From: Candidatus Levyibacteriota bacterium
GTDB taxonomy: Bacteria; Patescibacteriota; Microgenomatia; Levybacterales; UBA12049
DNA length: 64,000 bases
NCBI GenBank assembly: GCA_963790825.1
Contig: CAWBPM010000002.1
Span: 97,702 to 161,701 of the forward strand
Direction of reading: 5' to 3'
The first letter of the stretch is position 1. The number at the start of each line of letters is the position of its first letter. Below are positions 4,801 through 49,244 of the stretch, one piece after another. Under the pieces are notes generated by a model. That model saw only the letters and a list, made by a program, of their open reading frames with translations. It was not told the DNA's origin and ran no database searches. A program made the position numbers and the translations under genes.

Positions 4801-5052
4801 TTTATCGACACCTGCTTCTTTATCATGCAAAGAACGTTTAGCGACATAAATCTCACAGCCGATAATCGGTTTAATACCGGCATCTAGGGCTTGCTGATAA
4901 AATTTAATGACTCCGTACATACTTCCGTGATCTGTGATAGCCAGCGCTTTCATATTTAGCTCTTTGGCACGTTTTACCATCTCGCTAACTTTATTTAGCC
5001 CATCAAGAAGAGAGTAGTCAGAGTGGTTATGGAGATGTACAAAATCAGTCAT
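1807..5052 (-). CDS. dnaE: DNA polymerase III alpha subunit
   Basis: 1081 aa. N-terminal PHP domain (HLHNHSDYSLLDG), polymerase core motifs and a C-terminal OB region. Intact single frame. Confidence 0.9.
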   Translation of the reverse strand: MTDFVHLHNHSDYSLLDGLNKVSEMVKRAKELNMKALAITDHGSMYGVIKFYQQALDAGIKPIIGCEIYVAKRSLHDKEAGVDKDYNHLVLLAENNAGYKNLMKIVSVSYLEGYYYKPRTDLNLLQKYHEGLICLSACVNGYVTDPLTRSEDSEAEKRAIKLQEIFGNENFFLEIQHHINVPPQEPANKKLIKLSKKLGIPLVATNDNHYTRKEDAEAQEILLCIQTQSTILDKNRKLSMIDSPDFYIKSAEEMEKLFMDNPEAIENTIKIADRCNVEITLGKWILPVFAVPEGNTPKTYLEKLVKEGMMRRYKEITPEIKERVEYELSVIVGKGYETYFLVVSDFVNWAKGHHISVGPGRGSAAGSVVSYCLNITDIDPFYFKLPFERFLNPLRPSAPDIDLDFADTRREEVIAYVTQKYGEDKVAQIITFGTMEARGSVRDAGRALGMPYAGPDRISKMIPPGWQGHAMTIDSALAQSPDLKHAYDSEEETRKLLDIAKKLEGVARHASVHAAGVVISDKPLTEYVPLQRETNGDKVVTQYDMYTVGEDGVGLLKMDFLGLRNLTIIEETLKFIKQNQGKDVDFHSVPLDDKKTYELLSQAETTGIFQLESAGMRRYIKELKPTNIFDLMAMVALYRPGPMQAIPEFIARKHGRLPITYPDPRLETILQPSYGILAFQDDVLLTVIEIAGYTWLDADKFRKAMGKKIPSEMRKQEKQFIKSAVQRGLSEKKAHEMFELIAPFAGYGFNKAHAACYATIAFRTAYLKAHFPVEFMAALLTAESRGTTGPVKNEKIARAVAECKRLGVPVLPPDINKSNSDFSIENKDGVRFGLSAIKNVGTAAIESILNARKEKPFSSLPDFCSKVNLSSVNKKTMESLIKAGAMDKFGKRAALLIALPEVVAKANQIKKQFLEGQASLFGDEPVDDLSYQAIIEDVDDFTNEEKLNFEKEFLGFYLSSHPQMDNLTYVKSLITHELEFIEGEEAGVVVKVGGIIESLRKIFTKKSGSEMAFLVLGDEKGITAECVIFPRVFEQYKTFLLNDRVVVIEGKLDGRNEKPVIIAEKIYPVDKMLLDLPSNRN

Positions 5053-17833: not shown

Positions 17834-19382
17834 TGGAAAGGCCTAACTTCCGCTTCAATCGCACTTCTACTTAAAATCTGCCGGTTATAGGGTCGCTCCT
17901 ATAAAATTTGAAAACTATCTCAACCTGGATGCAGGCACAATTAATCCGATTGAGCATGGTGATCCGTTTCTGTGCGAAGACGGAACTGAGGGTGATATGG
18001 ATATGGGAACATATGAAAAATTCTTAGATGAAGACATGGGGAAAAGCAATTTCGTAACAATGGGTAGGATTTACCAAAATGTCATTGATAAAGAGAGAAG
18101 ATTTGAGTATGACGGTGAAGACGTAGAAGCAATTCCGCATATCACCGATGAAATAACCAGGTGTATTTATACCTTGGCGAAGGAAAAAGATGCACAGATT
18201 GTTCTAATCGAACTTGGCGGTACAGCCGGAGAATATCAAAATATATTTTACTATGAAGCTTCCCGAATATTGGCACTTCGTAATCCGGGGGACGTAGTTC
18301 ATGTACATGTCAGCTATGTTCCGACTCCTAGCCATTTGGGTGAACCGAAAACCAAACCGACCCAGATTATCCGTTCGTACACTTAATTCCATGGGAATTC
18401 AGCCTGATTTTATTATAGCCCGATCGGACAGAATGCTGGATAAAAGACGACGCGACAGATTTGCCCTGTTTTGCAATATGCATCCTGAAGATATTATTTC
18501 CAATCCTGATATCGAATCGGTATATGAGATTCCGCTTAATTCTACATGAACAAGGACTGGATAAGCGCATCATGCATAAATTACATCTTCCTTTGAAGAG
18601 AGCCGAAACTGGACCGCTTGGAAGCAATTTATAACAAGAGTAAAAAATCAAGAAGAGAAAGAAATTACGATCGCAATTGTGGGGAAATACTTCGGTACAG
18701 GAGAGTATCAAATGCGTGATTCTTATGCTGCGTTGCTTGATGCCATTGACCATGCGGCTGCGGCAGAAAATGTAAAAGTTATAACTAAATGGGTTAATGC
18801 TGAAAAAATAGAGTCCGCAATAGAAGAAGCAAAAAGTACAAGTAAAGATATTATAGTTAGTTGTTAAGGAAGTTATCGGTGAGCCGAACGGAATAATTGT
18901 TCCGATAGGTTGGGGAGAACGCGGCAGCGAAGGAATGATTGAAGCTGTCAATTATGCGAAGAATAACAAAGATTCCTTATTTAGGATTGTGTTTTGGTAT
19001 GCAGCTGGCGGTAGTTGGATTTGCCAGGGATGAACTCGGATGGAAAGATGCTAACAGTGAGGAATTAGATCCTAAAACTTCCCATCCGGTTATTCATTTC
19101 ATCGCCAACCAAAAAGAATTGATAGCCAGAAGAGCTTACGGCGGGACCATGCGGCTTGGCGGTTGGGAAGCAATTGTTAAAAAGGGTACAAGGGCTTTTG
19201 AGATTTATAAGAAATCTCATGCTTTTATAAATGAGAAAAAAGGATTAACCAGCGAACGGCATCGACATCGTTATGAATTTAACGACGAGTTTGCAAAGGA
19301 ATTAGAAGAACACGGGCTGGTTATTGCAGCCCGATCGGTTAAAGAGAATTTGGTAGAAATTATTGAGCTAGCAGAAATCTGA
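17796..19382 (+). pseudogene. pyrG: CTP synthase gene, heavily frameshifted (at least 8 frame changes) and no start codon
   Basis: PyrG-like segments in alternating frames: [47 protein letters not shown]...DMDMGTYEKF, TQHS-like RSVRTLNSMGIQPDFIIARSDR, KEITIAIVGKYFGTGEYQMRDSYAALLDA, and the glutaminase domain YLGLCFGMQ...ERHRHRYEFN. No ATG precedes the N-terminus. Confidence 0.65.
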
Positions 19383-25755: not shown

Positions 25756-26472
25756 ATGGGAACATTATACATTGTTGCAACGCCGATCGGCAACTTACAG
25801 GATATAACTTTACGAGCTTTAAAAATGTTGCGCGAAGTAGATATTATTGCCTGTGAGGATACAAGGCGGACGGGAACACTTCTGAAATCTATTCAAGAAA
25901 TCATCCCAACGCGAGGAGATGAACAGGAAAAATCACAAAAGTCACCGCGTTTGCTTTCTTACTATGAAGAGATCGAGACCCATCGTATTCCTGAAATTAT
26001 TAGTTTACTCCTTAATGATTTGGATGTTGCACTCGTTTCTGATGCAGGGACACCGGCGATTTCCGATCCGGGATTTAAATTAATTCGTGAATGTATCTCA
26101 CAAAAAATTCCGGTTGTCGCAATTCCTGGTCCGTCAGCGGTGCTTACGTCTTTGGTAATTTCCGGTTTACCGACGGATAAGTTTAATTTTTATGGCTATC
26201 CGCCGAAAAAACCGGGGCATAGAATAACATTTTTTGAAAAAATAAAAGAAACACAAAAACATCTTTCTGCAACAATTATTTTTTTTGAAGCGCCGCATAA
26301 ATTAATTCGAACATTGGAGGATTTACAAAAAGTTTTTGACGACGTCGATATTGTTTTATGTCGCGAGTTGACCAAGGTTTATGAGGAGGTTAGGAGAGAA
26401 AAAATATCCGAGTCTCTTGCCCATTTTCAAAAAACAACTCCCAAAGGCGAATTCGTGATTTTACTACACTAA
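25756..26472 (+). CDS. rsmI: 16S rRNA (cytidine1402-2'-O)-methyltransferase
   Basis: MGTLYIVATPIGNLQDITLRALKMLREVDIIACEDTRRTGTLLK is the RsmI tetrapyrrole-methylase-fold N-terminus. Confidence 0.8.
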   Translation: MGTLYIVATPIGNLQDITLRALKMLREVDIIACEDTRRTGTLLKSIQEIIPTRGDEQEKSQKSPRLLSYYEEIETHRIPEIISLLLNDLDVALVSDAGTPAISDPGFKLIRECISQKIPVVAIPGPSAVLTSLVISGLPTDKFNFYGYPPKKPGHRITFFEKIKETQKHLSATIIFFEAPHKLIRTLEDLQKVFDDVDIVLCRELTKVYEEVRREKISESLAHFQKTTPKGEFVILLH

Positions 26473-26704
26473 AATACACAAATTAAAAATATAAGTCTAT
26501 AAAATAATAACTTAATTACATATCCGAATATTTGATATCTTAACTTGTCATTCATGCCTGAATTCCCGTTGTTCGGAATACTACGAAACCGGACTGGACA
26601 AAAACTTAATATCCACAGTTCGAATCCTAATCGCGGAGCAAATTAGCCTCAAAATTGACTTCTTTTTGAATTGAGACAACAATGTATTTGTAAGGAGATA
26701 TTTT

Positions 26705-26893
26705 ATGAACCTCACAACAAGTCTTATCGTTTTTGCCGCAATTATTATATCCGTTAATAATTTCGTGTTGTTTTATGTAATTAAGAATAATGGAATACAT
26801 TCAAGAATACACTCGCTTGGTATGATAGTATTTTTGATTAGTCTTATTGAAATTGTGGCAATTGGAATTTGGGCTTATATCCACTTAAGATAA
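26705..26893 (+). CDS. small membrane protein (two TM helices)
   Basis: 62-aa hydrophobic ORF preceded by AAGGAGATATTTTATG. Confidence 0.35.
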   Translation: MNLTTSLIVFAAIIISVNNFVLFYVIKNNGIHSRIHSLGMIVFLISLIEIVAIGIWAYIHLR

Positions 26894-26954
26894 TGGGTTC
26901 TCTCCATTTCCATCAGTCGGTTTCCGAAACCGATAGTGTGGAAACCGGAATATT

Positions 26955-27431
26955 TTGAACTGCTATACTAAACTTATGAAGATGCTGAAACTTCTGACCG
27001 GAAGCGGAGACAAAATGGGCCCTTTCATTTGGCCGTTTGCAATCCTCGGCTTTACTTTATATTTTATTTTACCCTCTCTTTTTAGTATTCCCAAATCAAA
27101 TCTCTTAAACATTTTCGGTCTGATTCTTCTAATTTTGGGTCTTATTGTTTGTATCTGGTCCCAAATTTTGATATTGATAAAAGTCCCCAAAAAACAACTT
27201 ATCTTGATCGGTCCTTATGGTCTGGTAAAGCATCCTTTGTATACCGGGGTTTCTCTTTTGGTGCTTCCCGGACTTGGATTTTTGCTTGATAACTGGTTAG
27301 GGCTTTTATTCGGACTTGTTCTTTACATCATTACAAGAATTTACAGACCTGAAGAGGAAAAAAGAATGAAAAAAGAATTCGGGGAAAAATATGAAAAATA
27401 CTTAAAGAGTGTCCTCTTTCCTAGGTTGTAA
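26955..27431 (+). CDS. isoprenylcysteine carboxyl methyltransferase (ICMT)/phospholipid methyltransferase family membrane protein
   Basis: LILIGPYGLVKHPLYTGVSLLVLPGLGFLL...RPEEEKRMKKEFGEKYEKY matches the ICMT/PEMT family C-terminal signature. Confidence 0.65.
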   Translation: MNCYTKLMKMLKLLTGSGDKMGPFIWPFAILGFTLYFILPSLFSIPKSNLLNIFGLILLILGLIVCIWSQILILIKVPKKQLILIGPYGLVKHPLYTGVSLLVLPGLGFLLDNWLGLLFGLVLYIITRIYRPEEEKRMKKEFGEKYEKYLKSVLFPRL

Positions 27432-27609
27432 ACTAAGAAGTTGAATTAATTTTCTCAAAAGAAGAGATAAAGTAGGTTCTCCCCATTTACATTAGGTGGA
27501 GCTCTGTTTGGCCTTAAATCGTGCCTAAAAAGGATTACGGGAATCGAACCCTAAAAAATAGAAGTCGTATAAACCCGGATTTGTGACACAGGGCTAATTA
27601 CCTACTATA

Positions 27610-28314
27610 TTAGTAAAGTAATTTAAATGAATTCATAATTTTATTAAAGATTTCCTGCTGATTACTACTATATAAGCTGCCTGATTGCATAATATAGACA
27701 AAGTTTTTATCCTGGACGTATGCTGTTTGTCGTTTGTATTCAACGGGTTCAATATTAGATTTTGTATAAATACCCTCTAGAGTGCTGTGCAGCTGATTAG
27801 TCATAACAAAGTTAGCTATAACGGTATTTAGTCCATTTATCTCAGTTGAGTTATATCCTGTAGCTTCTGAGTAGAGACCATCATTTTCTTTAGCAAATGA
27901 TAATAAATCTTTATTATTTCCTATATCATACAACACTAAAGAAATGTTGCTATCATACATTTTGACTAAAGCAGGAGCGGAGTTTCTATTCATATGTAAA
28001 AGACCACTAGAGCCAGCAACTTGATACGCATTCTTTGTCAGCGGTGAATAAGCTCCTGTATTTACTACGTAAAAATCAGGATAATTGAAAGTATAGCCAT
28101 TTACCAAATCTATGTAAGTTTCCCAACCTTGTTCTCTTGGCTGACTATTATAGATCTGCTCAAATTTAGTTTGGTAATTAATCGGCAAGATGTTAGTATA
28201 TGTAAACAATAAATAAGAAACTACAAGCCCACAAAAAAAGGCTAAAATGATAAAAAGTAAAAATGGTATGGTTTTTGGTAATATTTTCTTGGCCATAGAT
28301 TCATTATGCACCAA
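27610..28314 (-). CDS. hypothetical membrane-anchored protein
   Basis: 234 aa with an N-terminal signal-anchor helix (IPFLLFIILAFFCGLVVSYLLF) and an Asn/Tyr/Ser-rich extracytoplasmic part. No known motif. Confidence 0.45.
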   Translation of the reverse strand: MVHNESMAKKILPKTIPFLLFIILAFFCGLVVSYLLFTYTNILPINYQTKFEQIYNSQPREQGWETYIDLVNGYTFNYPDFYVVNTGAYSPLTKNAYQVAGSSGLLHMNRNSAPALVKMYDSNISLVLYDIGNNKDLLSFAKENDGLYSEATGYNSTEINGLNTVIANFVMTNQLHSTLEGIYTKSNIEPVEYKRQTAYVQDKNFVYIMQSGSLYSSNQQEIFNKIMNSFKLLY

Positions 28315-28392
28315 TATAGAAGACTTGCAAAGGATGATATTTAAACCATCTCCTTGTCATATAACATCAAATTAACAATATGTTGCTCATGT

Positions 28393-28454
28393 AGGTTCAA
28401 ACGTCGACCTGCGACTCCACGCAGTGGATAGTCCCTTTATGGGGTAAGCGAAGC
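28393..28454 (+). repeat. family-A structured repeat, copy A1
   Basis: AGGTTCAAACGTCGACCTGCGAC-TCCACGCAGTGGA-TAGTCCCTTTATGGGGTAAGCGAAGC. Shares both ends and the double-hairpin layout with A2/A3, but the central hairpin sequence is swapped for a different 5-bp stem (TCCAC/GTGGA versus GATTC/GAATC). Confidence 0.7.
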
Positions 28455-28529
28455 TTAAGAGGTATAATTATTACACAATTATCATAAACATTTAGTATTA
28501 TTACTAAAATTGATTGGAGGTGATGAACA

Positions 28530-28673
28530 ATGATGGATCAAACAAAATGGGGACATGATATGATGGAATGCTGCAAGGAGCATTCTATGTCAAAAGAACA
28601 TCTTGAAGCAATGAAGAAAATGCTGGAAGAAAAACTAAAGTGGGTTAGTGAAGAACTAAAGAAAGCAGCATAG
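28530..28673 (+). CDS. small hypothetical protein (47 aa)
   Basis: Strong RBS GGAGGTGA 7 nt upstream of the ATG. Charged helical peptide MMDQTKWGHDMMECCKEHSMSKEHLEAMKKMLEEKLKWVSEELKKAA. Coordinates +/-1. Confidence 0.35.
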   Translation: MMDQTKWGHDMMECCKEHSMSKEHLEAMKKMLEEKLKWVSEELKKAA

Positions 28674-28940
28674 CAACAAAACAATATTGTGAAGCAGGAT
28701 GGGGCAAGTCAATAAACTAAATCTGAAGCTGAGGAAGTTACGTCTGGGATGTAAAACTACTCTTCTTGATGCTCAATAGTGGCTTTAACATTGTTTACGA
28801 TGCGGAGCTCGGTTTATTCATAATAAATTAGATACCAAGTATTACGAATACACTAACCAAGGACATTTTGGTGGGGATTACTATAAAGAAATTTTCCCTG
28901 AGCTTGTTCAAGCGATTAAAGAAGAGTTAGTTAGAAAATA

Positions 28941-28983
28941 GTTTCAAACGTCGGACTGTAGTCGGAACTCAGTTTAGCCTCAG
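28941..28983 (+). repeat. degenerate, truncated family-A-like repeat
   Basis: GTTTCAAACGTCGGACTGTAGTCGGAACTCAGTTTAGCCTCAG resembles the 5' half of family A (GGTTCGAACGTCGACC...). Confidence 0.35.
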
Positions 28984-29027
28984 AAATGACAAGAAATAGC
29001 ATAGTAGGATGGTGATATAATCACCGT

Positions 29028-29669
29028 ATGAATATAAATCTACATCTGATCAATGCATCAGGAACGCTAAATCCATTTGTCATAGATATTGAAAAGATTT
29101 TTCCTACGACTATTAAACGGATTAGGAAGGTATTGCCTGTTGATAATGTCGATATCATTGTTTGGGAAGATGCTGATTGGGCAATTAAAAAATATGGGCT
29201 AGGAGGACATACGATAAAAGCAAATACAGTAATAGTTTCCATTGATCCGAATAATCCCAAAGCAAAACAATCATTTCCTGAACGTTTTACTACAACACTT
29301 ATGCATGAATTGCACCATGCTACCCGTATGCAAGCACTAGGAGAAGGATTTATTCCACGACTGGAAGCATCAGTAAGAGAAGGACTAGCAGAACACTTTG
29401 AAATACAACTTACAGGTAAAAAGCCAGAAGTATGGGATAATGCACTAACAAAGCAACAACTCACAGAATTCATAAAAATAGCAAAAGAGAATAAAAGTAC
29501 GGAGGACTATTATCTCTATGATTGGTTATTTGGAAATAAAGAACAAAAGATACCAGAATGGACAGGCTACTCGGTTGGGTTTCAACTTATTAACGATTAT
29601 CTAGAGACACATCCTCAAGCTACTCCAGCAACTCTTTACAAAACGAAAGCAGAAGTATTTATAAAATGA
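29028..29669 (+). CDS. putative zinc-dependent peptidase (HExxH motif, DUF2268-like)
   Basis: HELHH motif (TTLMHELHHATRMQALGEG) in a 213-aa soluble protein. First cassette-like gene, followed by repeat A2. Confidence 0.4.
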   Translation: MNINLHLINASGTLNPFVIDIEKIFPTTIKRIRKVLPVDNVDIIVWEDADWAIKKYGLGGHTIKANTVIVSIDPNNPKAKQSFPERFTTTLMHELHHATRMQALGEGFIPRLEASVREGLAEHFEIQLTGKKPEVWDNALTKQQLTEFIKIAKENKSTEDYYLYDWLFGNKEQKIPEWTGYSVGFQLINDYLETHPQATPATLYKTKAEVFIK

Positions 29670-29700
29670 GTCTTACCTCTGCGCTAAATAGTACTGTACC

Positions 29701-29763
29701 AGGTTCGAACATTGGCCTGCGACGATTCGAAGAATCTAGTCCCCTTGTGGGGTAAGCGGAGCT
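29701..29763 (+). repeat. family-A structured repeat, copy A2
   Basis: AGGTTCGAACATTGGCCTGCGACGATTCGAAGAATCTAGTCCCCTTGTGGGGTAAGCGGAGCTG. Starts about 30 nt after the stop of the 29028-29669 gene. Confidence 0.7.
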
Positions 29764-29824
29764 GATATGCTTTGATATATTTTGTTAGTCTCAAGGTTGC
29801 TTCTGGTATAATGGAACTATTCAT

Positions 29825-30169
29825 ATGGATGAGACAGTAAAATTGGTAGTTTTTGTACCTGAAACTCATGCAGATATAGTCAGAGAAGCTATGGGCAAGG
29901 CAGGAGCTGGAATAGTGGGAGATTATAAATACTGTAGCTTTTCAGTTAAAGGAACGGGAAGATTTATCCCGCTCGATACTGCACATCCATTTATTGGTAA
30001 GGTAGGCAATTTGGAAGAAGTAGAGGAAGAACGAATCGAAACTGTTTGTTATAAGAAAGACTTGGAAAAGATAATTGCAGCTATAAAAAAGGTTCATCCC
30101 TATGAAGAAGTTGCATTAGACGTTTATCCTTTGGTTTTAAATCCTCATGAAACAACATATAAGAAATAG
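29825..30169 (+). CDS. hypothetical protein, PII/CutA-like fold suspected (resembles NIF3-family insert domain)
   Basis: 114 aa. KLVVFVPETHADIVREAMGKAGAGIVGDYKYCSFSVKGTGRFIP...EERIETVCYKKDLEKII pattern. Family assignment is from memory only. Confidence 0.3.
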   Translation: MDETVKLVVFVPETHADIVREAMGKAGAGIVGDYKYCSFSVKGTGRFIPLDTAHPFIGKVGNLEEVEEERIETVCYKKDLEKIIAAIKKVHPYEEVALDVYPLVLNPHETTYKK

Positions 30170-30232
30170 TTCCTCACATATTCAACCAGGGAGAGCTCAG
30201 GCTAGTCCCAGTTTTACTAACTTGAATAGGAT
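30168..30232 (+). repeat. family-B repeat, copy B1 (B core + A-like CTAGTCCC segment + inverted partial B core)
   Basis: GTTCCTCACATATTCAACCAGGGAGAGCTCAGGCTAGTCCCAGTTTTACTAACTTGAATAGG. The forward core ATATTCAA and the inverted TTGAATA lie about 45 nt apart. Begins 1 nt after the stop of the preceding gene. Confidence 0.65.
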
Positions 30233-30258
30233 AACAAAACCTCTGATATAATTCTCAT

Positions 30259-30696
30259 GTGGCAATAAAATTTGAATTTCGTGATATGACTGACAACGAA
30301 TATAAACAAGAGCAGTCTGCGTTCGATGAACACGGGTTAGAGTTTGGTAATCCTCCCGAGAAGCAAGAACGTTTTGGATTTATAGCCACTGAAAATGAGG
30401 AATTTGTAGGTTGCTCAAGTGGATTAGCACAAAAAAATAATGGTCAATATGGCAAATACTTCTATTTGAGTGATTTATTGGTTGAAAAAAAATATCGAAA
30501 ATATGGCTATGGAAAAAAGCTTTTAGAGTTGCTTGAAAGTAAACTAAAGTTGCTTGGTATAGAATATGTTTGGACATGGACAGCAGGTTATGAAGCCCCA
30601 CCTTTTTATCTAAAACAAGGATATAAGACTTTTACAACATTTGAGAATTATTACCCGTCTGGTCATGCTAGAGTTGGATTTATAAAAAAGCTATAG
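30259..30696 (+). CDS. GNAT family N-acetyltransferase
   Basis: Acetyl-CoA binding region LLVEKKYRKYGYGKKLLELLE (Q/RxxGxG/A-like) in a 145-aa protein. Confidence 0.65.
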   Translation: MAIKFEFRDMTDNEYKQEQSAFDEHGLEFGNPPEKQERFGFIATENEEFVGCSSGLAQKNNGQYGKYFYLSDLLVEKKYRKYGYGKKLLELLESKLKLLGIEYVWTWTAGYEAPPFYLKQGYKTFTTFENYYPSGHARVGFIKKL

Positions 30697-30707
30697 AGCT
30701 CTAAAGT

Positions 30708-30770
30708 AGGTTCGAACGTCGACCTGCGACGATTCGAAGAATCTAGTCCCCTTATGGGGTAAGCGGAGCT
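30708..30770 (+). repeat. family-A structured repeat, copy A3
   Basis: AGGTTCGAACGTCGACCTGCGACGATTCGAAGAATCTAGTCCCCTTATGGGGTAAGCGGAGCT, 4 differences from A2. Begins 12 nt after the GNAT stop codon. Confidence 0.7.
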
Positions 30771-30848
30771 AAATACCTTACGTTAGAATCATAATTTAGA
30801 TTGATAAAACAAGCCAAATATACAACTCTCTTTAGATAGTTTTGTAAA

Positions 30849-30876
30849 AGGTATGCGGAGTTGAATGTGTGAGGAA
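30849..30876 (-). repeat. mosaic junction: A-3'-end-like segment fused to an inverted family-B core
   Basis: Plus strand reads GGTATGCGGAG-TTGAATGTGTGAGGAA. GGTATGCGGAG resembles the A end GGTAAGCGGAG. The reverse complement of the rest is TTCCTCACACATTCAA, which is the B core with 1 mismatch. Confidence 0.55.
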
Positions 30877-30914
30877 TCATTGACTTGCCTTCTTAATCGT
30901 GCCACACTATTTGT

Positions 30915-31553
30915 ATGGAAGAGCAGGTAAAATCGTTTCAACTTTCCCCAGCCCCTGATAAGAACCACCATAAAAGAGTCATTATGTACGGAATAGGGGC
31001 AATATTTCTTTTGATATTAGGTATGGGAATTGGATATTTAATAGGAATAAATAATACTGTCAGCTATTCAATAAAACCACAGACAGAAACATTAAAGCAA
31101 AATTCAAATACTACCATATTGTCAATTTCTCCTTCCCCAACTGATGACCAAATCTTAAATATGCTTCCTACGCTGGAGCCAGAGTTTCAATGGCAACAAG
31201 TAAAAACAGCACAATTTACTTATCCTTTAACGTCAAACACACAATTATCTGGAGAGCAGAGAATTGGAACTCAAATGGTGCAGGATGCAAATAGTTGGCC
31301 GACACCATCGTTTGCCCCCAGTCACATCGATTTACCAACATTGCTAAAGAATGGTTGGAATGAAGATATTACCTTAGATACAGGAGGTGTAGGAGGAGGA
31401 CAGCAAGGATTTAACAAATTTGAAGGGGGAAAAGAGCGAATTCTTGTTTGGGGAACTTCAATAGGCCCATTGGTTCCATCCGCTAATGGACCGGATGTTC
31501 TCAAATGCCCCTGTACTAGGCAAACAACTGTTTTTATCAGCAATCCCTTCTAA
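30915..31553 (+). CDS. hypothetical membrane-anchored protein
   Basis: 212 aa with a TM helix at residues ~23-45 (VIMYGIGAIFLLILGMGIGYLIG), then a Gln/Thr/Pro-rich extracytoplasmic domain. No motif. Confidence 0.45.
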   Translation: MEEQVKSFQLSPAPDKNHHKRVIMYGIGAIFLLILGMGIGYLIGINNTVSYSIKPQTETLKQNSNTTILSISPSPTDDQILNMLPTLEPEFQWQQVKTAQFTYPLTSNTQLSGEQRIGTQMVQDANSWPTPSFAPSHIDLPTLLKNGWNEDITLDTGGVGGGQQGFNKFEGGKERILVWGTSIGPLVPSANGPDVLKCPCTRQTTVFISNPF

Positions 31554-31603
31554 ATTATAAAAATTATAAGTATCATTAATCCGTTCATGGGCTAAAGTAA
31601 AAA

Positions 31604-31630
31604 TTCCTCACATATTCAACCAGAGGGAGT
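31604..31630 (+). repeat. family-B repeat, copy B2
   Basis: TTCCTCACATATTCAACCAGAGGGAGT. Potential CCTC/GAGG stem. Followed 8 nt later by an ATG opening a 25-codon ORF. Confidence 0.6.
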
Positions 31631-31707
31631 AAAATTATGCTTAGAACGTTTCAGGCAGATAGACAAATTCTTTATGTAACCTTTTCAGAGTTTGGTATAC
31701 TTAATTC

Positions 31708-32184
31708 ATGTTAATTAGAAAAGCAACAATTAACGATGGGCAACAACTGATTGAAAAACTCGCAGAATTCGACGAGTACCTTACTCCATTATTTTCGCCA
31801 GAAATTAATCCCTTTGTCCAATATAAAGATAAAAACAAGACGTTTGAAGAAGTAGTGACGGAATGGCTAAATAACCCAGAATATATTCTTTTTGTTGCAG
31901 AAGATAACGGAAGTTTACTCGGTCATATATGTGGAACAGTTAAAAAGAAAAAATACTCTGTAAAAGATAGGGAAGGATCAGTAGAAGAATGGTTTGTTTC
32001 AGAAGAATATAGGCACCAAGGAATAGGTAAACAACTTTATCAAGCACTTTTATTAGAATTCAAAAAAGCAAAGTGCACTCATTTAAAATTACGTGTGTTT
32101 ACCGATAACAAGAAAACAATAGGTATGTATCATAAAATGGGTTTTATGGATCTAGAGTTTACTTTGATTAAAAAACTAGAATAA
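31708..32184 (+). CDS. GNAT family N-acetyltransferase
   Basis: VSEEYRHQGIGKQLYQALLLEF acetyl-CoA binding motif. 158 aa. Confidence 0.65.
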   Translation: MLIRKATINDGQQLIEKLAEFDEYLTPLFSPEINPFVQYKDKNKTFEEVVTEWLNNPEYILFVAEDNGSLLGHICGTVKKKKYSVKDREGSVEEWFVSEEYRHQGIGKQLYQALLLEFKKAKCTHLKLRVFTDNKKTIGMYHKMGFMDLEFTLIKKLE

Positions 32185-32194
32185 TCAAGTAATA

Positions 32195-32222
32195 GTTCCC
32201 CGCATATTCAATCAGATGGGGC
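32195..32222 (+). repeat. family-B repeat, copy B3 (compensatory CCCC/GGGG stem)
   Basis: GTTCCCCGCATATTCAATCAGATGGGGC. Where B2 has CCTC...GAGG, this copy has CCCC...GGGG at the equivalent positions. Confidence 0.6.
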
Positions 32223-32333
32223 AAATTATTATAGTCTCAACCAACTATATCGGACTGTACCAACTCCAAATAGAATTCTAGTTTTGGTTAAGATTTGCAA
32301 TCCAATCCTATAGCTGATATGTTTCTTGTAATT

Positions 32334-32935
32334 ATGCCAAAAGAATTTGAAGGTATTCTTGTAGCTCTCGAAGGAATTGATAATGGGGGTAAAAGTAGCC
32401 ATATTAATATCCTAGAAAGAAGACTTATAGCAAAGGAATTTCGTGTGAGATTACAAAAGAACTAAGCACACCAGTAGGGGAACTTGTCCGGAAGTATTTA
32501 AGAGAGGGTAATTTTTCTCCGCATCTGAAAACTTTACTTTTTGCAGCCGATAGAGTTGAAAGAGTTGATAAGCAAGTCAAACCAGCACTCCAGCAAGGAA
32601 AAGTCGTCCTTGCTGATAGATGGTCTCTTTCAGCAGTAGTGTACCGAGGCGTTGAGGGATTTGATGCTGAGTATGTTTTGGCAGTGAATTCTAAAACCCT
32701 GCAGCCAAATAAGATTTTCCTTATAGATATACCTGCTGAACTTTCAGTAAAACGGGGCGAATTAGGGAACAAACCACATCCGTATTCGATTGAATTTCTT
32801 GATAATGCAAGGAGACACTATCTTGAATTAGCAGGAAAAGATTCAGACATTGAAGTAATCGATGGAACACAATCTTTTGATGTGATAAATAACCTTCTCC
32901 TTCAACGAATCTTGAAATTAAGAGAGGGTAAATAA
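32334..32935 (+). pseudogene. tmk: thymidylate kinase with one -1 frameshift (pseudogene or 1-nt deletion error)
   Basis: N-terminus MPKEFEGILVALEGIDNGGKSS (P-loop) ends at a TAA near 32461. The rest (ELSTPVGELVRKYLREGNF...LADRWSLSAVVYRGVEG...) continues in the -1 frame to 32935. Restoring one A in TTACAAAAG (to TTAACAAAAG) rejoins the frames. Confidence 0.6.
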
Positions 32936-36734: not shown

Positions 36735-39000
36735 TTATTTCTTATTTACCAACTTTCTCTCAAACTCTGCAATATTTTCTCTGACACTGTCGATGACATC
36801 AGGAGCAATAGAAACGCTGGTTATGCCATATTCTACTAATTTTTCCAGAAGATCCGGATACAAAGAAGGCGCCTGTCCGCAAATAGACGCTGTGATATGG
36901 TGCTTATGAGCAGTTTTGATAACATGTTCAAGCGCCCACAAAACCGCTTCACTCCGTTCATCAAATTCCGCTGCCACCTCGCTATTGTCCCGATCAGTTC
37001 CCAAAATCAACATGGTTAAATCATTTGATCCGATCGAAATACCGTCAATACCAACTTTTATAAATTCGTCAAGTAAAATAACATTCGAAGGAATTTCTAC
37101 CATCATGAAAAGCTTGAATGTCGGAGTTCTGTAAAGACCCGAAGCATTAATAATTTTCTTGACTTCAATCAGCTCATGAACGTTCCTGACAAACGGAATC
37201 ATGAGCCAAAGATTTTTCAACATCTTTTTGTTTCTGATTATTTTAATAGCTTCAAGTTCCATCTCGAAGACCTCGGGATCATGAATATACCGGTAAGCCC
37301 CGCGGTAACCCAGCATAGGATTTGGCTCGATAGGCTCAAATTCTTTCCCGCCGTCCAAGCCCCGATACTCATTCGTTTTTAAATCCGACGCCCGATAAAT
37401 AACCGGACGGGGATTAAAGGCTGAGCAAAAAGTCTCAAGCCCCAGAGCTAATTTATCAATAAAAACTTTTTTCTTCCCGTCCCGGATGAGTTTTTTCGGA
37501 TGAGTGCCGATATCTGCTATCATAAACTCCGCACGCAGTAACCCAACACCGTCGACATTTCGTCTGGCTACTTTTTCCGCGAGATCCGGTTGGGCAAGAT
37601 TAACATAAACTTTTGTCGCAGTTTTTATATATGCATGTCTTGCTTCAGGAATAGAACTCATCGCGCTTGGTTTGAAGCTCCCTTTGTATATTTCTCCCTT
37701 TGCTCCGTTTACCGTGATGACCTCTCCTGTTTTTAATATTTTTGTTGCCGTTTCGGTACCGACGACTGCCGGAATCCCCAGTTCCCGGGAAACAATCGCA
37801 GCATGTGAAGTTCTGCCGCCTTTTTCAGTCACGATAGCTACAGCTTTTTTCATCGCCGGAACATAATCGGGATTTGTTTGCTCTGCAACCAGTACATCTC
37901 CCGGGAGAACTTTATTAATTTCAGACACCGAATGAATTACTTTCCGCGGGGCCGCTGGCAATTCCCGGAGAAGCAGGGGCACCGGTAAGAAGAAGCGGTA
38001 GATTAATAACTTCCTCTTTTACCTTTTTCGTATGAGTAGTTGTAATTGCCCGGGTTTGGACAATATATACTTTATTTTTCTCAATCGCCCATTCGATGTC
38101 CTGGGGAAAATAATAATGATGCTCAAGTTTTTTTGCAAGAAGTGCGAGTTCTAAAATCTGATTGTCGGAAATTTTCTGTTTTTTCTTTTCATGATCCGTT
38201 AACCTAATCTCTTTATTTTTTGTCCCAACCTTTTTCAACATAATATCTTGCGGAGAGATAATTTTTTTCAAAATCTTAAGATCATCTTTTTTAACTTCAT
38301 AGTGATCGGGCGTAACCGTTCCCTGAACAATATTTTCTCCGAGACCCAAAATTGCTTCGATGGTAATGACAGACTTATCATTAGTTACCGGATCAAGGGA
38401 AAACATAACACCGGATTTTTCTGACTCAACCATTTTTTGAACAACGATTGCGATACCGACTCTGAAATGATCAAAATGTTGTTCATGCCGGTAAAATATG
38501 GCACGCGGTTCAAAAAGTGATGCCCAAGCTTCTTTGACTGCGAAGAGTAGATTTGTTTCACCTTTTATATTAAGATACGTTTCCTGCTGTCCTGCGAAAG
38601 ACGCAGTTGGCAAATCCTCAGCAGTAGCGCTTGAACGCACCGCAACAAGTGCGTCTTTAAAAATACCACCCAACATTTTATACGATTTAAAAATGTCATT
38701 GATTAATTGTTCCGACATACTCGCTTCCATAATCAGTTTTTTAATAAGTGAGGAAACTTGAGCAAGTGATTCGGGTCTGTCAAAACCGGTGGTTCCCAGT
38801 AGATGTTTAATTTTTGTGGTCAGGTTATTTTCGTGAAGAAACTGGAAATAAGATTGGGAGGAAACAATAAACCCATTCGGAACGGGAAATTTGGCTCTGG
38901 TCATCTCGCCCAAATTAGCACCTTTTCCGCCAACAACGGGAATGTCATTTTTATCTACTTCGGAAAACCAAAGAACTGATTTACTTTTTACGGGCATCAC
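36735..39000 (-). pseudogene. ppsA: phosphoenolpyruvate synthase (pyruvate, water dikinase) split by one frameshift
   Basis: N-terminal 359-aa ORF is the PPDK_N ATP-grasp (PEP/pyruvate-binding) part. C-terminal 415-aa ORF has the phospho-His mobile domain GGRTSHAAIVSRELGIPAVVG and the PEP-utilising TIM barrel. The junction near 37925-37980 falls in a G/C-run (AGCGGCCCCGCGG). A 1-nt indel rejoins GIASGPA to RKVIHSV. Confidence 0.6.
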
Positions 39001-45199: not shown

Positions 45200-45766
45200 C
45201 CTTTATTTTCCCTCTTGACAATTAGGAAAAGGATATGATTTACTAAATGCAGAGATATGAAAACAACTGCCCCGATAAATAAACTAGCTAAAGGTTTTAC
45301 CCTCATCGAGCTCTTAGTTGTTATCGGCATTTTAGCAATTCTTTTGGCAATCACCTTAATCGCAATTAATCCGGCCAGACAATTCTCCCAGGCAAATAAT
45401 ACAAAAAGAAGCAGCGATGTGAATGCTATTCTTAATGCCGTCAATCAGTATATGGCAGATAATAAAGGTGCTCTTCCCACAGGTATTAGTACGACAGCCC
45501 AGACGATTAACGGAGTAGATTTTGGAGCCATGTGCACTGCATTGGTTCCTACATATATAGCCGCACTTCCGGTAGATCCATTATCTAATGCAAATGCGGT
45601 ACAGTCTACAGATTGCACGAGTACTACATGGAATACAGGATACGTAGTACAGCAGTTAACAGGTGGCAGCAATAGGCTTACGGTATCCGCACCGGGAGCA
45701 GAGCTGGGGGCCACTATCTCCGTAACCAGATAAAGAGTTTCTCCTTATTAATTTAATTATTATTAA
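45200..45766 (+). repeat. 567-bp perfect direct repeat, copy 1 (pilin promoter + pilin gene + 33 nt 3' flank)
   Basis: Identical base-for-base to 48076-48642 by direct comparison of the printed sequence. The flanks diverge immediately outside both ends. Confidence 0.85.
45257..45733 (+). CDS. pilA: type IV major pilin (prepilin with 13-aa leader, G|FTLIELLVV)
   Basis: MKTTAPINKLAKG|FTLIELLVVIGILAILLAITLIAINP class III signal. 158 aa, with two Cys near the C-terminus (disulfide loop). A TTGACA hexamer lies 35 nt upstream. Confidence 0.8.
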   Translation: MKTTAPINKLAKGFTLIELLVVIGILAILLAITLIAINPARQFSQANNTKRSSDVNAILNAVNQYMADNKGALPTGISTTAQTINGVDFGAMCTALVPTYIAALPVDPLSNANAVQSTDCTSTTWNTGYVVQQLTGGSNRLTVSAPGAELGATISVTR

Positions 45767-48075: not shown

Positions 48076-48642
48076 CCTTTATTTTCCCTCTTGACAATTA
48101 GGAAAAGGATATGATTTACTAAATGCAGAGATATGAAAACAACTGCCCCGATAAATAAACTAGCTAAAGGTTTTACCCTCATCGAGCTCTTAGTTGTTAT
48201 CGGCATTTTAGCAATTCTTTTGGCAATCACCTTAATCGCAATTAATCCGGCCAGACAATTCTCCCAGGCAAATAATACAAAAAGAAGCAGCGATGTGAAT
48301 GCTATTCTTAATGCCGTCAATCAGTATATGGCAGATAATAAAGGTGCTCTTCCCACAGGTATTAGTACGACAGCCCAGACGATTAACGGAGTAGATTTTG
48401 GAGCCATGTGCACTGCATTGGTTCCTACATATATAGCCGCACTTCCGGTAGATCCATTATCTAATGCAAATGCGGTACAGTCTACAGATTGCACGAGTAC
48501 TACATGGAATACAGGATACGTAGTACAGCAGTTAACAGGTGGCAGCAATAGGCTTACGGTATCCGCACCGGGAGCAGAGCTGGGGGCCACTATCTCCGTA
48601 ACCAGATAAAGAGTTTCTCCTTATTAATTTAATTATTATTAA
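48076..48642 (+). repeat. 567-bp perfect direct repeat, copy 2
   Basis: Identical to 45200-45766 (offset 2876 bp). Confidence 0.85.
48133..48609 (+). CDS. pilA: type IV major pilin, exact duplicate of 45257-45733
   Basis: Encoded protein identical over all 158 aa. Lies inside repeat copy 2. Confidence 0.8.
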   Translation: MKTTAPINKLAKGFTLIELLVVIGILAILLAITLIAINPARQFSQANNTKRSSDVNAILNAVNQYMADNKGALPTGISTTAQTINGVDFGAMCTALVPTYIAALPVDPLSNANAVQSTDCTSTTWNTGYVVQQLTGGSNRLTVSAPGAELGATISVTR

Positions 48643-48767
48643 TCCATTATTTATTTGTATTTTGTTTAATTTTATTTCTTATGAAGATAGCCTTTTTAAG
48701 TATACAACTTTCAAAATATTCCCTATTGACAAATAATTGAAAAAACTGATTAAATTAGTGCATAGAT

Positions 48768-49244
48768 ATGAAAACAACTGCCCCGATAAATAAACTAGCT
48801 AAAGGTTTTACCCTCATCGAGCTCTTAGTTGTTATCGGTATTTTGGCAGTATTACTGGCAATTACTTTAGTTGCCATCAATCCGGCCAGACAATTTTCCC
48901 AGGCAAATAATACAAAACGAAGCAGTGACGTAAACTCCATTCTGGATGCAATTAATCAGTACATGGCAGATAATAAAGGTGCTCTTCCCACAGGTATTAG
49001 TACAACTGCCGCAACAATTAATGGGACGGGCTTTACAGCTCTCTGTAGCGCTTTAGTACCTACTTATATAGCCGCTCTTCCGACTGATCCATTATCGAAT
49101 AATTCTGCCGTACAGTCCAGTAGCTGTACAAGTACAACATGGAATACAGGATACGTAGTACAGCAGTTAGTAGGAGGAGGTAATAGGGTAACTGTTTCTG
49201 CTCCTATGGCTGAGCTTAGTGCAACTGTTTCAGTAACGAGATAG
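48768..49244 (+). CDS. pilA: type IV major pilin, divergent third paralogue
   Basis: Same leader and N-terminal helix (MKTTAPINKLAKGFTLIELLVVIGILA). About 30 substitutions concentrated in the central/C-terminal variable region. Own TTGACA-N17-ATTAAAT promoter-like sequence upstream. Confidence 0.8.
   Translation: MKTTAPINKLAKGFTLIELLVVIGILAVLLAITLVAINPARQFSQANNTKRSSDVNSILDAINQYMADNKGALPTGISTTAATINGTGFTALCSALVPTYIAALPTDPLSNNSAVQSSSCTSTTWNTGYVVQQLVGGGNRVTVSAPMAELSATVSVTR

Follow-up and report, generated by a model that had tools for sequence, protein, structure and literature searches.

Hairpin-bearing repeat elements behind small genes of a Levybacteria-like bacterium: candidate junction sites of single-gene modules

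Introduction

The attC sites of integrons have R'' (RYYYAAC), the inverse core, as their 5' end and R' (GTTRRRY), the complementary core, as their 3' end; their bottom strand folds into a single imperfect hairpin that has R and L boxes, extrahelical bases and a central spacer left unpaired. A complete integron has intI adjacent, and a cluster of attC sites without an integrase is termed CALIN; to our knowledge, Rfam holds no attC family. Single genes flanked by XerC/D sites form the pdif modules of Acinetobacter plasmids. The present work describes a 63-nt repeat, family A, and related elements in a stretch of 64,000 nt (hereafter, the window) of contig CAWBPM010000002.1 of a Candidatus Levyibacteriota bacterium (assembly GCA_963790825.1, positions 97,702 to 161,701, forward strand). 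The repeat and the swap of a stem in one of its copies are real. A more interesting result than the structured-RNA reading of this repeat appears to be a wider class of box-hairpin-box elements, which seem to bound shuffled leaderless single-gene modules in a clade of the candidate phyla radiation (CPR). With a probability of about 35%, these elements may be the DNA junction sites of such modules, similar to attC in logic and failing the attC tests.

In the proposed arrangement, a module would consist of a leaderless-type -10 box, an open reading frame (ORF) and an element starting at or just past the stop codon; the element would comprise a sequence-conserved 5' box, TAGGTTCNAACRTC, a core conserving just the presence of a short hairpin, and a 3' box, GCGNAGC. 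On DNA, this would be a site read by both sequence and structure, where modules are joined, exchanged or copied; the logic would be that of attC (conserved ends, variable hairpin centre, folded single strand), with a different sequence, fold and recombinase. What was observed directly is the anatomy of the elements, the recurrence of conserved boxes around different cores in more than one genome, the setting in an array and the fact that one module has variable neighbours; that the site acts as DNA, that it recombines and which kind of enzyme might serve it are proposals built upon these observations. The junction reading draws on the array, where six to nine small unrelated + strand genes, each with an element, lie in low-G+C DNA inside a stretch of ~10 kb that is absent from the closest syntenic relative (locus L009), on the conserved boxes around unrelated perfect hairpin cores in different genomes and on the module of a 114-aa gene, which has different neighbours in close relatives and a fixed context elsewhere. 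It also draws on homogeneity within the genome (copies A2 and A3 are 92% identical, and element B1 is nearer to B2 and B3 than to its orthologue in the related contig L036), on C-GNA-G loops of the DNA type, all on the + strand, and on possible recombination scars (28802, 30860 and copy A1).

Such loops are known from DNA mini-hairpins. The sequence GCGNAGC forms an 'extraordinarily stable' DNA mini-hairpin, which needs the C-G closing pair and has much less stable RNA counterparts; it has been found at the single-strand priming sites of phage G4 and RSF1010 ssiA and also in the promoters of phage N4, which are DNA hairpins with a 5-bp stem and a 3-base loop, GGA or GAA (PMC13037366; PMC3201870).

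Family A repeats

Family A consists of three 63-nt copies, all direct and on the + strand, within 2.4 kb; their features are as follows.

A1, 28393-28455, + strand: variant copy with hairpin H1 = TCCAC-GCA-GTGGA; no + strand gene precedes it in its divergent intergenic region
A2, 29701-29763, + strand: copy 31 nt past the stop of the DUF2268 gene (29028-29669); first 45 nt confirmed by assembly L003
A3, 30708-30770, + strand: copy 11 nt past the stop of the GNAT gene (30259-30696)
5' box TAGGTTCNAACRTC, + strand: exact at A1 (28392-28405) and A3 (30707-30720), two mismatches at A2 (29700-29713); also with one mismatch at 28939-28952, in the element Adeg described below
3' box, + strand: GCGAAGC in A1 (28448-28454), GCGGAGC in A2 and A3 (29756-29762, 30763-30769); the GCGNAGC mini-hairpin motif
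Hairpin H1, + strand: TCCAC-GCA-GTGGA in A1 (28416-28428), GATTC-GAA-GAATC in A2 and A3 (29724-29736, 30731-30743); C-GNA-G triloop
Hairpin H2, + strand: CCCY-TTRT-GGGG (28433-28444, 29741-29752, 30748-30759)

Searches of the window with the two halves of the consensus, GGTTCGAACGTCGACCTGCGAC (5') and TAGTCCCCTTATGGGGTAAGCGGAGC (3'), allowing up to three mismatches, returned A1, A2 and A3 alone for each half; shuffled sequence gave no match to either half, the number expected by chance being 0, and nhmmer and a covariance model found no further full copy in the 64 kb. Copies A2 and A3 share their 92% identity though they follow unrelated genes, and A1 differs from A3 at 4 of 54 positions outside the swapped hairpin. 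The edges are sharp, with identity gone within 1-2 nt beyond the 63 nt at both ends. A separate short-read assembly of the same sample, L003, is identical to window positions 28593-29745 and ends inside A2, as a repeat-induced break would. The half-consensus searches, the shuffles and the alignment columns bear out the copies and the stem swap of A1, both first pointed out in a sequence-only reading of this DNA. Two palindromes named there are each present in two copies: GTTCGAAC in A2 and A3 but not in A1, which reads GTTCAAAC, and GTCGAC in A1 and A3 but not in A2, which reads ATTGGC. The stretch 28941-28983, described there as a degenerate truncated copy, has just the first ~20 nt in common with family A (28939-28958, 85%; nhmmer E = 0.6) and continues with another motif.

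Beyond the window, exact-pattern scans for family A yielded two matches in GTDB genomes and four in JGI metagenomes, all in high-G+C coding sequence and taken as chance; pattern scans of IMG/VR gave chance or tRNA matches only, and a blastn search against plasmids and phages gave no match. The covariance model, run over 159 kb of loci compared, recovered just the three known copies. Rfam, a check proposed in the sequence-only reading, gave no match to family A: at the gathering threshold the whole window contained only two tRNAs, at E <= 10 the region 26400-32400 (the island) contained nothing credible and no tRNA, and six related loci contained nothing at E <= 0.1.

These data bear on the possibility of a selfish small repeat, REP- or MITE-like, whose 63-nt unit would copy itself into gene 3' ends or existing box sites and have no host role. 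The sharp edges, the similarity of A2 and A3 behind unrelated genes and the breaks of short-read assemblies at copies would suit it, as would the GTAG before A1 and A3, known from REP elements, the ends AGGTTCG / CGGAGCT, which make an imperfect inverted repeat, and the short element E0 (see below), which resembles an 'empty' site. Such a repeat is nevertheless rather unlikely: there are just three copies in 64 kb, all direct and within 2.4 kb, no target-site duplication is seen, A2 is preceded by CCAG instead of GTAG, the scanned ORFs of the window include no RAYT or transposase, and scans of GTDB genomes, JGI metagenomes, IMG/VR, plasmids and phages turned up no copy at their sensitivity.

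The hairpin swap and the folding of family A

In A1, alignment columns 24-27 and 33-36 of H1 are changed on both sides with all five pairs preserved, and columns C28, G29, A31 and G32 are invariant, so that the swap left the C-G closing pair and the two outer loop bases unchanged. The chance of four random Watson-Crick pairs is about P = 0.005, and 0.17% of the 13-mers of the window are able to form a hairpin of this type (perfect 5-bp stem, 3-nt loop); as the swap is improbable by chance, something favours a hairpin at this position. The earlier claim that such covariation argues for a selected structure stands as far as the perfect stem and loop kept at the swap are concerned, but this is one event in three copies, and the remaining evidence is less favourable. 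The five other stem substitutions are single transitions, which on the + strand give three G.U and two A.C pairs and the reverse on the - strand; they look neutral. G.U pairs were dropped as a guide to the folding strand, the 3:2 split between strands being what neutral change would give.

Folding energies are ordinary. The minimum free energies of A1, A2 and A3 compared with dinucleotide shuffles gave z = -0.06, +0.21 and -1.29 for the copies alone and -0.67, +0.12 and -1.75 with 30-nt flanks, i.e., no better than shuffled sequence. RNAalifold applied to the three copies predicted a four-helix consensus with a closing stem AGGUUCG/CGGAGCU containing a G.G mismatch and hairpins of 4, 5 and 4 bp (loops of 5, 3 and 4 nt); 96.5% of the cells are paired, and all four double-sided changes lie in H1. 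This cloverleaf competes with four tandem hairpins, one made by UAGGUU with GACCUG and a small one by the 3' end alone; the 3' box can fold by itself or pair with the 5' end AGGTTCG, and A3 only has an additional long hairpin, TTCGAACGTCG...CGACGATTCGAA. The double-hairpin layout noted earlier is therefore correct in that H1 and H2 are present, but more than two hairpins are possible. With 30-nt flanks, all three copies folded with H2 retained, and two of them with H1 as well, so the elements do not become unstructured in flanking context, an outcome that the sequence-only reading had named as speaking against it.

A neutral relic would be a leftover of local duplication or gene conversion, with the replacement hairpin produced by template-switch mutation rather than selection; template-switch (quasi-palindrome) correction could yield a perfect replacement hairpin in this way. 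The neutral-looking substitutions outside H1 agree with it, as does the CGCAG in the new segment of A1, which is complementary to the adjacent CTGCG and hints at a templated change, and the island does hold pseudogene remnants and a frameshifted tmk. It is nonetheless improbable, as the closing pair and the G and A of the loop survived the swap, the 5' box is exact in another genome with different cores, and elements of unrelated genes have sharp ends in common and nothing in their flanks.

A coding remnant, in which the 63 nt would be the C-terminal end of a decayed gene with the frame VRTSTCDDSKNLVPLWGKRS*, was rejected as having next to no probability. Its frame is open in all three copies, and three differences in the 3' half are synonymous (CCC/CCT, TTA/TTG, CGG/CGA), but there is no start codon, a stop stands directly upstream in A1 and A3, five residues are altered non-conservatively by the H1 swap, the opposite strand has a frame that is just as open, and the peptide is absent from all loci compared.

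Triloops of the DNA mini-hairpin type

Both versions of H1 have C-GNA-G triloops (GAA and GCA), and H1 and the 3' box vary only at the middle loop base N as far as the loop is concerned. Four of the six perfect C-GNA-G hairpins on the + strand of the window fall in family A; the chance frequency of the triloop is about 0.8%. At the sequence level, H1 and the 3' box show the GNA triloop, the C-G closing pair and the short G/C stem of mini-hairpins, and because of this resemblance to GCGNAGC the triloops tilt the choice between DNA and RNA to DNA, and to the sense strand. To take covariation as showing 'structured RNA' is to overstate a single event in three copies; the conserved C-GNA-G triloops suit single-stranded DNA at least as much as RNA.

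The gene array and its elements

The host is a CPR bacterium, Microgenomates/Levybacteria-like, whose best RsmI relatives are just 65-72% identical; the source contig measures 751 kb. The gene order in the closest syntenic relative, L009, is LexA...RsmI-HisPhos-PPDK-Hpt-RR-T2SSE, and the window has ~10 kb extra between RsmI and PPDK; this stretch contains the array.

Array, 26500-32250, + strand: about nine single-gene modules, between RsmI and the tmk fragments, inside the ~10-kb stretch absent from the nearest syntenic relative
E0, 26617-26655, + strand: AGTTCGAATCC-TAATC-GCGGAGC-AAATTAGCCTCAAAAT; boxes and terminal motif without a hairpin core
E2, 27472-27505, + strand: GTAGGTTC-TCCCCATTTACATTAGGT-GGAGCT; 40 nt past the stop of the ICMT-like gene
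Orphan 3' box GCGGAGCT, 28802-28809, + strand: directly before the C-terminal remnant of a gene
Adeg, 28939-28985, + strand: only the 5' box in common with A; TTAGCCTCAGAA at its end; a truncated gene remnant has its stop codon in the TAG of Adeg
Extended -10 box TGATATAAT, 29013-29021, + strand: 6 nt before a start codon; others at 29804-29812, 30244-30252 and 31693-31701; these boxes mark module starts
B1, 30167-30240, + strand: behind the 114-aa gene; homologous to the elements behind the same gene in L036 and L038
B2, 31600-31630, B3, 32192-32225, and an inverted partial copy, 30860-30881: same type as B1

The array takes up the first ~5.7 kb of the extra DNA between RsmI and PPDK, and its genes are small, unrelated and mostly on the + strand: a 62-aa gene, an ICMT-like gene, a 47-aa gene, a gene remnant, the DUF2268 gene, the 114-aa gene, a GNAT gene, a 212-aa gene and a second GNAT gene. 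Its G+C content is 0.35-0.36 vs 0.39-0.42. Nearly all stop codons of the array have a repeat within 0-40 nt downstream, belonging to family A, family B or the shorter elements at 26617, 26897 and 27472; at 26917, an element core contains the perfect hairpin TCGGTTT-CCG-AAACCGA. Adeg, the supposed truncated copy, is a relative that shares the 5' box and not a decayed copy of A; its TTAGCCTCAGAA matches an element of a related genome at 12 of 12 positions.

The orphan 3' box, the inverted partial B copy at 30860 and the gene-less A1 are possible recombination scars. After GCGGAGCT, the stretch 28802-28941 holds the C-terminal ~37 codons of a gene (..GHFGGDYYKEIFPELVQAIKEELVRK*) with no start codon, and this looks like a rearrangement breakpoint at a box. 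The GNAT gene and A3 lie between two 22-nt inverted B-type boxes, 30165-30186 and 30860-30881, with 86% complementarity; within these boxes, GTTGAAT and ATTCAAC happen to match the integron core / inverse-core consensus.

Most array genes have an extended -10 box (TGnTAnnnT) exactly 6 nt ahead of the start codon, as do uvrB and other core genes; because of this spacing at both island and core start codons, the boxes imply widespread leaderless transcription in the host genome and its close relatives. Box and start were located at 26961-26978, 29013-29030, 30244-30261 and 31693-31710 on the + strand and at 22253-22236 and 15941-15924 on the - strand; in the relatives, such boxes occur at 84-101 and 490-507 in L036 and at 328, 712 and 1424 in L038.

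The element E0 bears on a derivation from tRNA genes, in which the elements would be attachment scars, remains of a tRNA gene (its T-loop and acceptor 3' end) that had served for integration. Here, GGTTCGAAC is T-loop-like, E0 reads AGTTCGAATCC...GCGGAGCA, in phage tRNA genes matching the 5' pattern, GGTTCGAACC..GACCTGCGAC corresponds in reverse complement to T-arm, variable loop and anticodon stem, and other T-loop-like fragments occur at 27537-27553 and in L041. This origin was rejected as very improbable on the ARAGORN and Rfam models, which find no tRNA in the elements even at E <= 10; moreover, T-stem/acceptor pairing is lacking, no intact tRNA stands at the island border, and the resemblance has opposite orientations in different parts of the element. 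As an observation in its own right, the T-loop-like strings GGGTTCGATTCCC, AGTTCGAATCC and CTGGTTCGAATCCAA lie in the window at 27537-27553 (-) and 26617-26627 (+) and in L041 at about 95-115 and about 4690-4710, in the intergenic DNA of small-gene arrays with no tRNA called; those of L041 are inside an ~80-nt repeat present twice.

Elsewhere in the window, several housekeeping genes look split or frameshifted: CTP synthase (17997-19382), thymidylate kinase (32295-32935) and PPDK (36735-39000; one 765-aa gene in L009). These could be pseudogenes, programmed frameshifts or assembly indels. Repeats of ~300 nt at 45200-45499, 48076-48375 and 48711-49010 (100% and 84% identical) are the 5' parts of three 158-aa paralogues, which adjoin a T2SSE/T2SSF pilus cluster; the one scanned with Pfam has a type IV pilin N-terminal methylation motif.

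Related elements and the 114-aa gene in other genomes

The 114-aa gene occupies 29825-30169 of the window and belongs to no Pfam family; its homologues are P0122-P0240. Across Levybacteria, Roizmanbacteria, CPR2 and other CPR groups the protein keeps 80-93% identity; RsmI of the same genome is much less conserved, at 65-72% identity to its relatives. In Levybacteria the gene has the fixed context RecO-aaRS-GNAT-114aa-168aa-MraZ-RsmH (aaRS, aminoacyl-tRNA synthetase), with no element behind it. In the closest contigs, L036 (93%), L038 (91%) and L037 (89%), it stands alone as a module whose ATG has the same -10 box 6 nt ahead of it, and the close relatives, including the window, have four different neighbours: NlpC/P60, adenylate kinase (ADK), a 126-aa ORF and, in the window, GNAT. 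Alignment of these loci showed similarity from the start codon, with the shared -10 box before it, to ~45 nt past the stop, and B1 is therefore the orthologue of the L036 element TAGGTTCTAACATCGTTTATCAGGTGAAGCAAATTAGCCTCAG. B1 is 71-77% identical to B2 and B3 and 59% identical to this orthologue. A protein-guided scan of IMG/VR with the 114-aa protein found nothing. In JGI sample 3300075153, a 4252-nt contig with P0126 carries a 509-aa reverse-transcriptase (RVT_1) gene 107 nt past the 114-aa gene; this may reflect a group II intron of the hairpin-targeting kind inserted in the 3' element, which would fit the junction reading and was counted for it.

The first 14 nt of the L036 element TAGGTTCTAACATCGTTTATCAGGTGAAGCAAATTAGCCTCAG are the 5' box of family A. 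This box, TAGGTTCNAACRTC, occurs exactly twice in the 1.5-kb L036 contig, which belongs to a related CPR bacterium, both times at a stop codon, and in 0 of 50 other loci compared. The two L036 elements have cores of 14 nt and about 130 nt, and the second, long-core element ends in CGGAGCAAAAT; the closing motif of these elements is either GCGGAGC or CGGAGCAAAAT. The core hairpin of L036 is a perfect TTTGAC-AATA-GTCAAA, unrelated to H1. An L038 element starts with TAAGTTCTAACG, contains a perfect hairpin, ATGGCA-AGCAC-TGCCAT, and ends in CGGAACTAGCC. The 19-nt terminal motif AGCAAATTAGCCTCAAAAT, present at 26637-26655, recurs at 464-478 of L036 (15/15) and 305-323 of L038 (18/19). This motif sits 0-34 nt upstream of -10 boxes in three genomes. 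An orthologue of the DUF2268 gene (L051, 64% identity) is followed by a different 3' hairpin and then GGCGGAGAAC, with no A element.

Families A and B are thus, like the shorter elements, versions of one class, with a 5' box, a variable core of one or more hairpins, a 3' box G(C)GNAGC and sometimes TTAGCCTCA. On these sequence comparisons, family A is the genome-specific form of a wider class of post-stop-codon elements.

Junction site or RNA 3' end

The main rival of the junction reading is an RNA 3'-end element. The repeat would then be the 3' untranslated region (UTR) of a leaderless monocistronic module, where hairpins and a box-binding protein end, process or protect the transcript; this is possible, if doubtful. 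In L036 and L038 as well as here, the elements begin 0-31 nt past stops and share the orientation of the gene; several stop codons are themselves the TAG or TAA of a box, and an element always stands ahead of the following -10 box. The stretch that genomes conserve extends, like a transcript, from start codon to element, and H1 and H2 persist in flanked RNA folds as described above. The intergenic regions of the island have no more canonical terminators than shuffles, so something else may end island transcripts. Set against this, the hairpins have no U-tract behind them, and canonical hairpin-plus-T8 terminators exist elsewhere in the window, e.g., after 1807-5052; the stems are just 4-5 bp with energies no better than those of shuffles; A1 and the inverted B copy have no upstream gene; an exact 14-nt box beside a freely varying core is unusual for terminators; and, by itself, an RNA 3' end leaves the within-genome homogeneity unexplained. 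GNA triloops are, moreover, weak in RNA (PMC13037366).

Several points also weigh against the DNA junction site. Neither population variants nor excised circles nor alternative junctions were observed, and the scanned ORFs of the window, including all of at least 280 aa and all island ORFs, gave no Pfam match to an integrase, a transposase, HUH or any other recombinase; a few ORFs were identified by translation or synteny alone, and two long ORFs have no Pfam match at all. Module ends are imprecise across genomes, and the L038 element behind the 114-aa gene has no 3' box. Every module has its own promoter-like box, unlike typical integron cassettes, and canonical attC features are lacking. The minus-strand gene 27610-28314 seems to have an inverted short element to itself, which is more in keeping with a signal tied to genes than with a polar array of recombination sites. 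Short motifs (3' box, TTAGCC) were compared partly by eye, and the mini-hairpin argument is one of sequence only. A loose 5' motif, TA[GA]G0-2TT[CT], follows 5 of 10 island genes vs 11 of 51 other genes; not being island-specific, it was discarded as an island marker, and only the 14-nt box counts as evidence.

If the elements do serve as recombination sites, they would be a second, independent answer to the integron problem of filing and shuffling single genes and would offer a handle on how tiny genomes of a huge uncultured radiation gain accessory functions. A bolder and rather improbable extension is that this CPR clade has a non-integron gene-cassette system, made up of a leaderless -10 box, an ORF and a two-box mini-hairpin site, in which even core genes would become cassettes, shuffled by a recombinase, HUH nuclease or reverse transcriptase acting on the folded sense strand; the 114-aa gene, which adjoins the cell-division cluster in Levybacteria, would be a possible example of such a core gene. 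The literature on integrons or leaderless genes in CPR/Patescibacteria provided nothing applicable. If the elements are RNA 3'-end signals, they would define the termination of leaderless monocistronic genes in this bacterial group, for which we know of no characterised terminators. Either way, TAGGTTCNAACRTC and GCGNAGC are simple search keys for existing metagenomes and metatranscriptomes.

Comparison with known systems

The locus resembles attC arrays and CALINs in its small unrelated same-strand ORFs with a 60-80-nt repeat within a few bases of the stop, in conserved ends able to pair imperfectly around a variable hairpin centre, in the similarity of sites within a genome, and in a variable region with cassette-type cargo (GNATs, small proteins). 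An array of ORFs plus sites in one orientation is present, and Pfam revealed no tyrosine recombinase in the scanned ORFs. Canonical attC membership was rejected after the R and L boxes were checked by hand. The 5' ends of family A read TTCGAAC or TTCAAAC, off the R'' consensus at positions 1 and 4; as for R', GTT is absent from the ~100 nt downstream of A1, and the nearest candidates are GTTAGTC at 21 nt past A2 (4/7 complementary) and GTTAGAA at 13 nt past A3 (6/7). The candidate L'' and L' of A3, CCTGCGAC and AGCTAAAT, are not complementary, and bottom-strand DNA folds with flanks share no long hairpin (z = -1.59, +0.07 and -3.44). The elements therefore differ from attC/CALIN in that R''/R' are not kept in all copies, L-box pairing and a single long bottom-strand hairpin are lacking, loops are favoured on the sense strand, every ORF comes with a -10 box of its own, and no IntI gene was seen in the 64 kb. 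With pdif modules they have in common single-gene modules between short conserved sites in differing contexts; unlike those, the elements show no 11-6-11 dif-like architecture, are chromosomal and have all sites in one orientation.

The likeness to the REP/BIME (RAYT) elements lies in short palindromic repeats just past genes, GTAG at the 5' foot of two copies and a species-specific sequence; REP elements are, however, dispersed in hundreds of copies, whereas family A has three local direct ones and none elsewhere in the 64 kb, without inverted A pairs, with CCAG in place of GTAG at A2, and with no RAYT (IS200/IS605-type Y1 transposase) in the window ORFs scanned. As for MITEs, AGGTTCG matches AGCTCCG, the reverse complement of the 3' end, at 5 of 7 positions, and the flanks show no duplication. 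A tRNA cloverleaf has stems of 7, 4, 5 and 5 bp and 7-nt anticodon and T loops, and the consensus cloverleaf of family A has loops of 5, 3 and 4 nt; ARAGORN predicted just tRNA-Asp and tRNA-Gly, both elsewhere in the window.

Intrinsic terminators and 3'-UTR stem-loops are similar in their location between the stop codon and the next promoter, in gene orientation and in variable hairpin sequence, but the elements have short stems, sequence-conserved flanking boxes and no U-tract. The copies are followed by AAATACC, GATATGC and TAAGAGG, with no T-run, and a terminator scan found four terminator-like sites in 8 kb vs 5.1 expected, one of them touching A2 (a weak 6-bp stem of the 3' box and flank).

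DNA mini-hairpins and N4 promoters, finally, are a structural motif rather than an element family, and the present locus has no single-strand replicon, primase signal or N4-like polymerase; in sequence, the likeness is to the 3' box of family A, GCGGAGC/GCGAAGC, and to H1 with its 5-bp stem and C-G-closed GAA or GCA loop.

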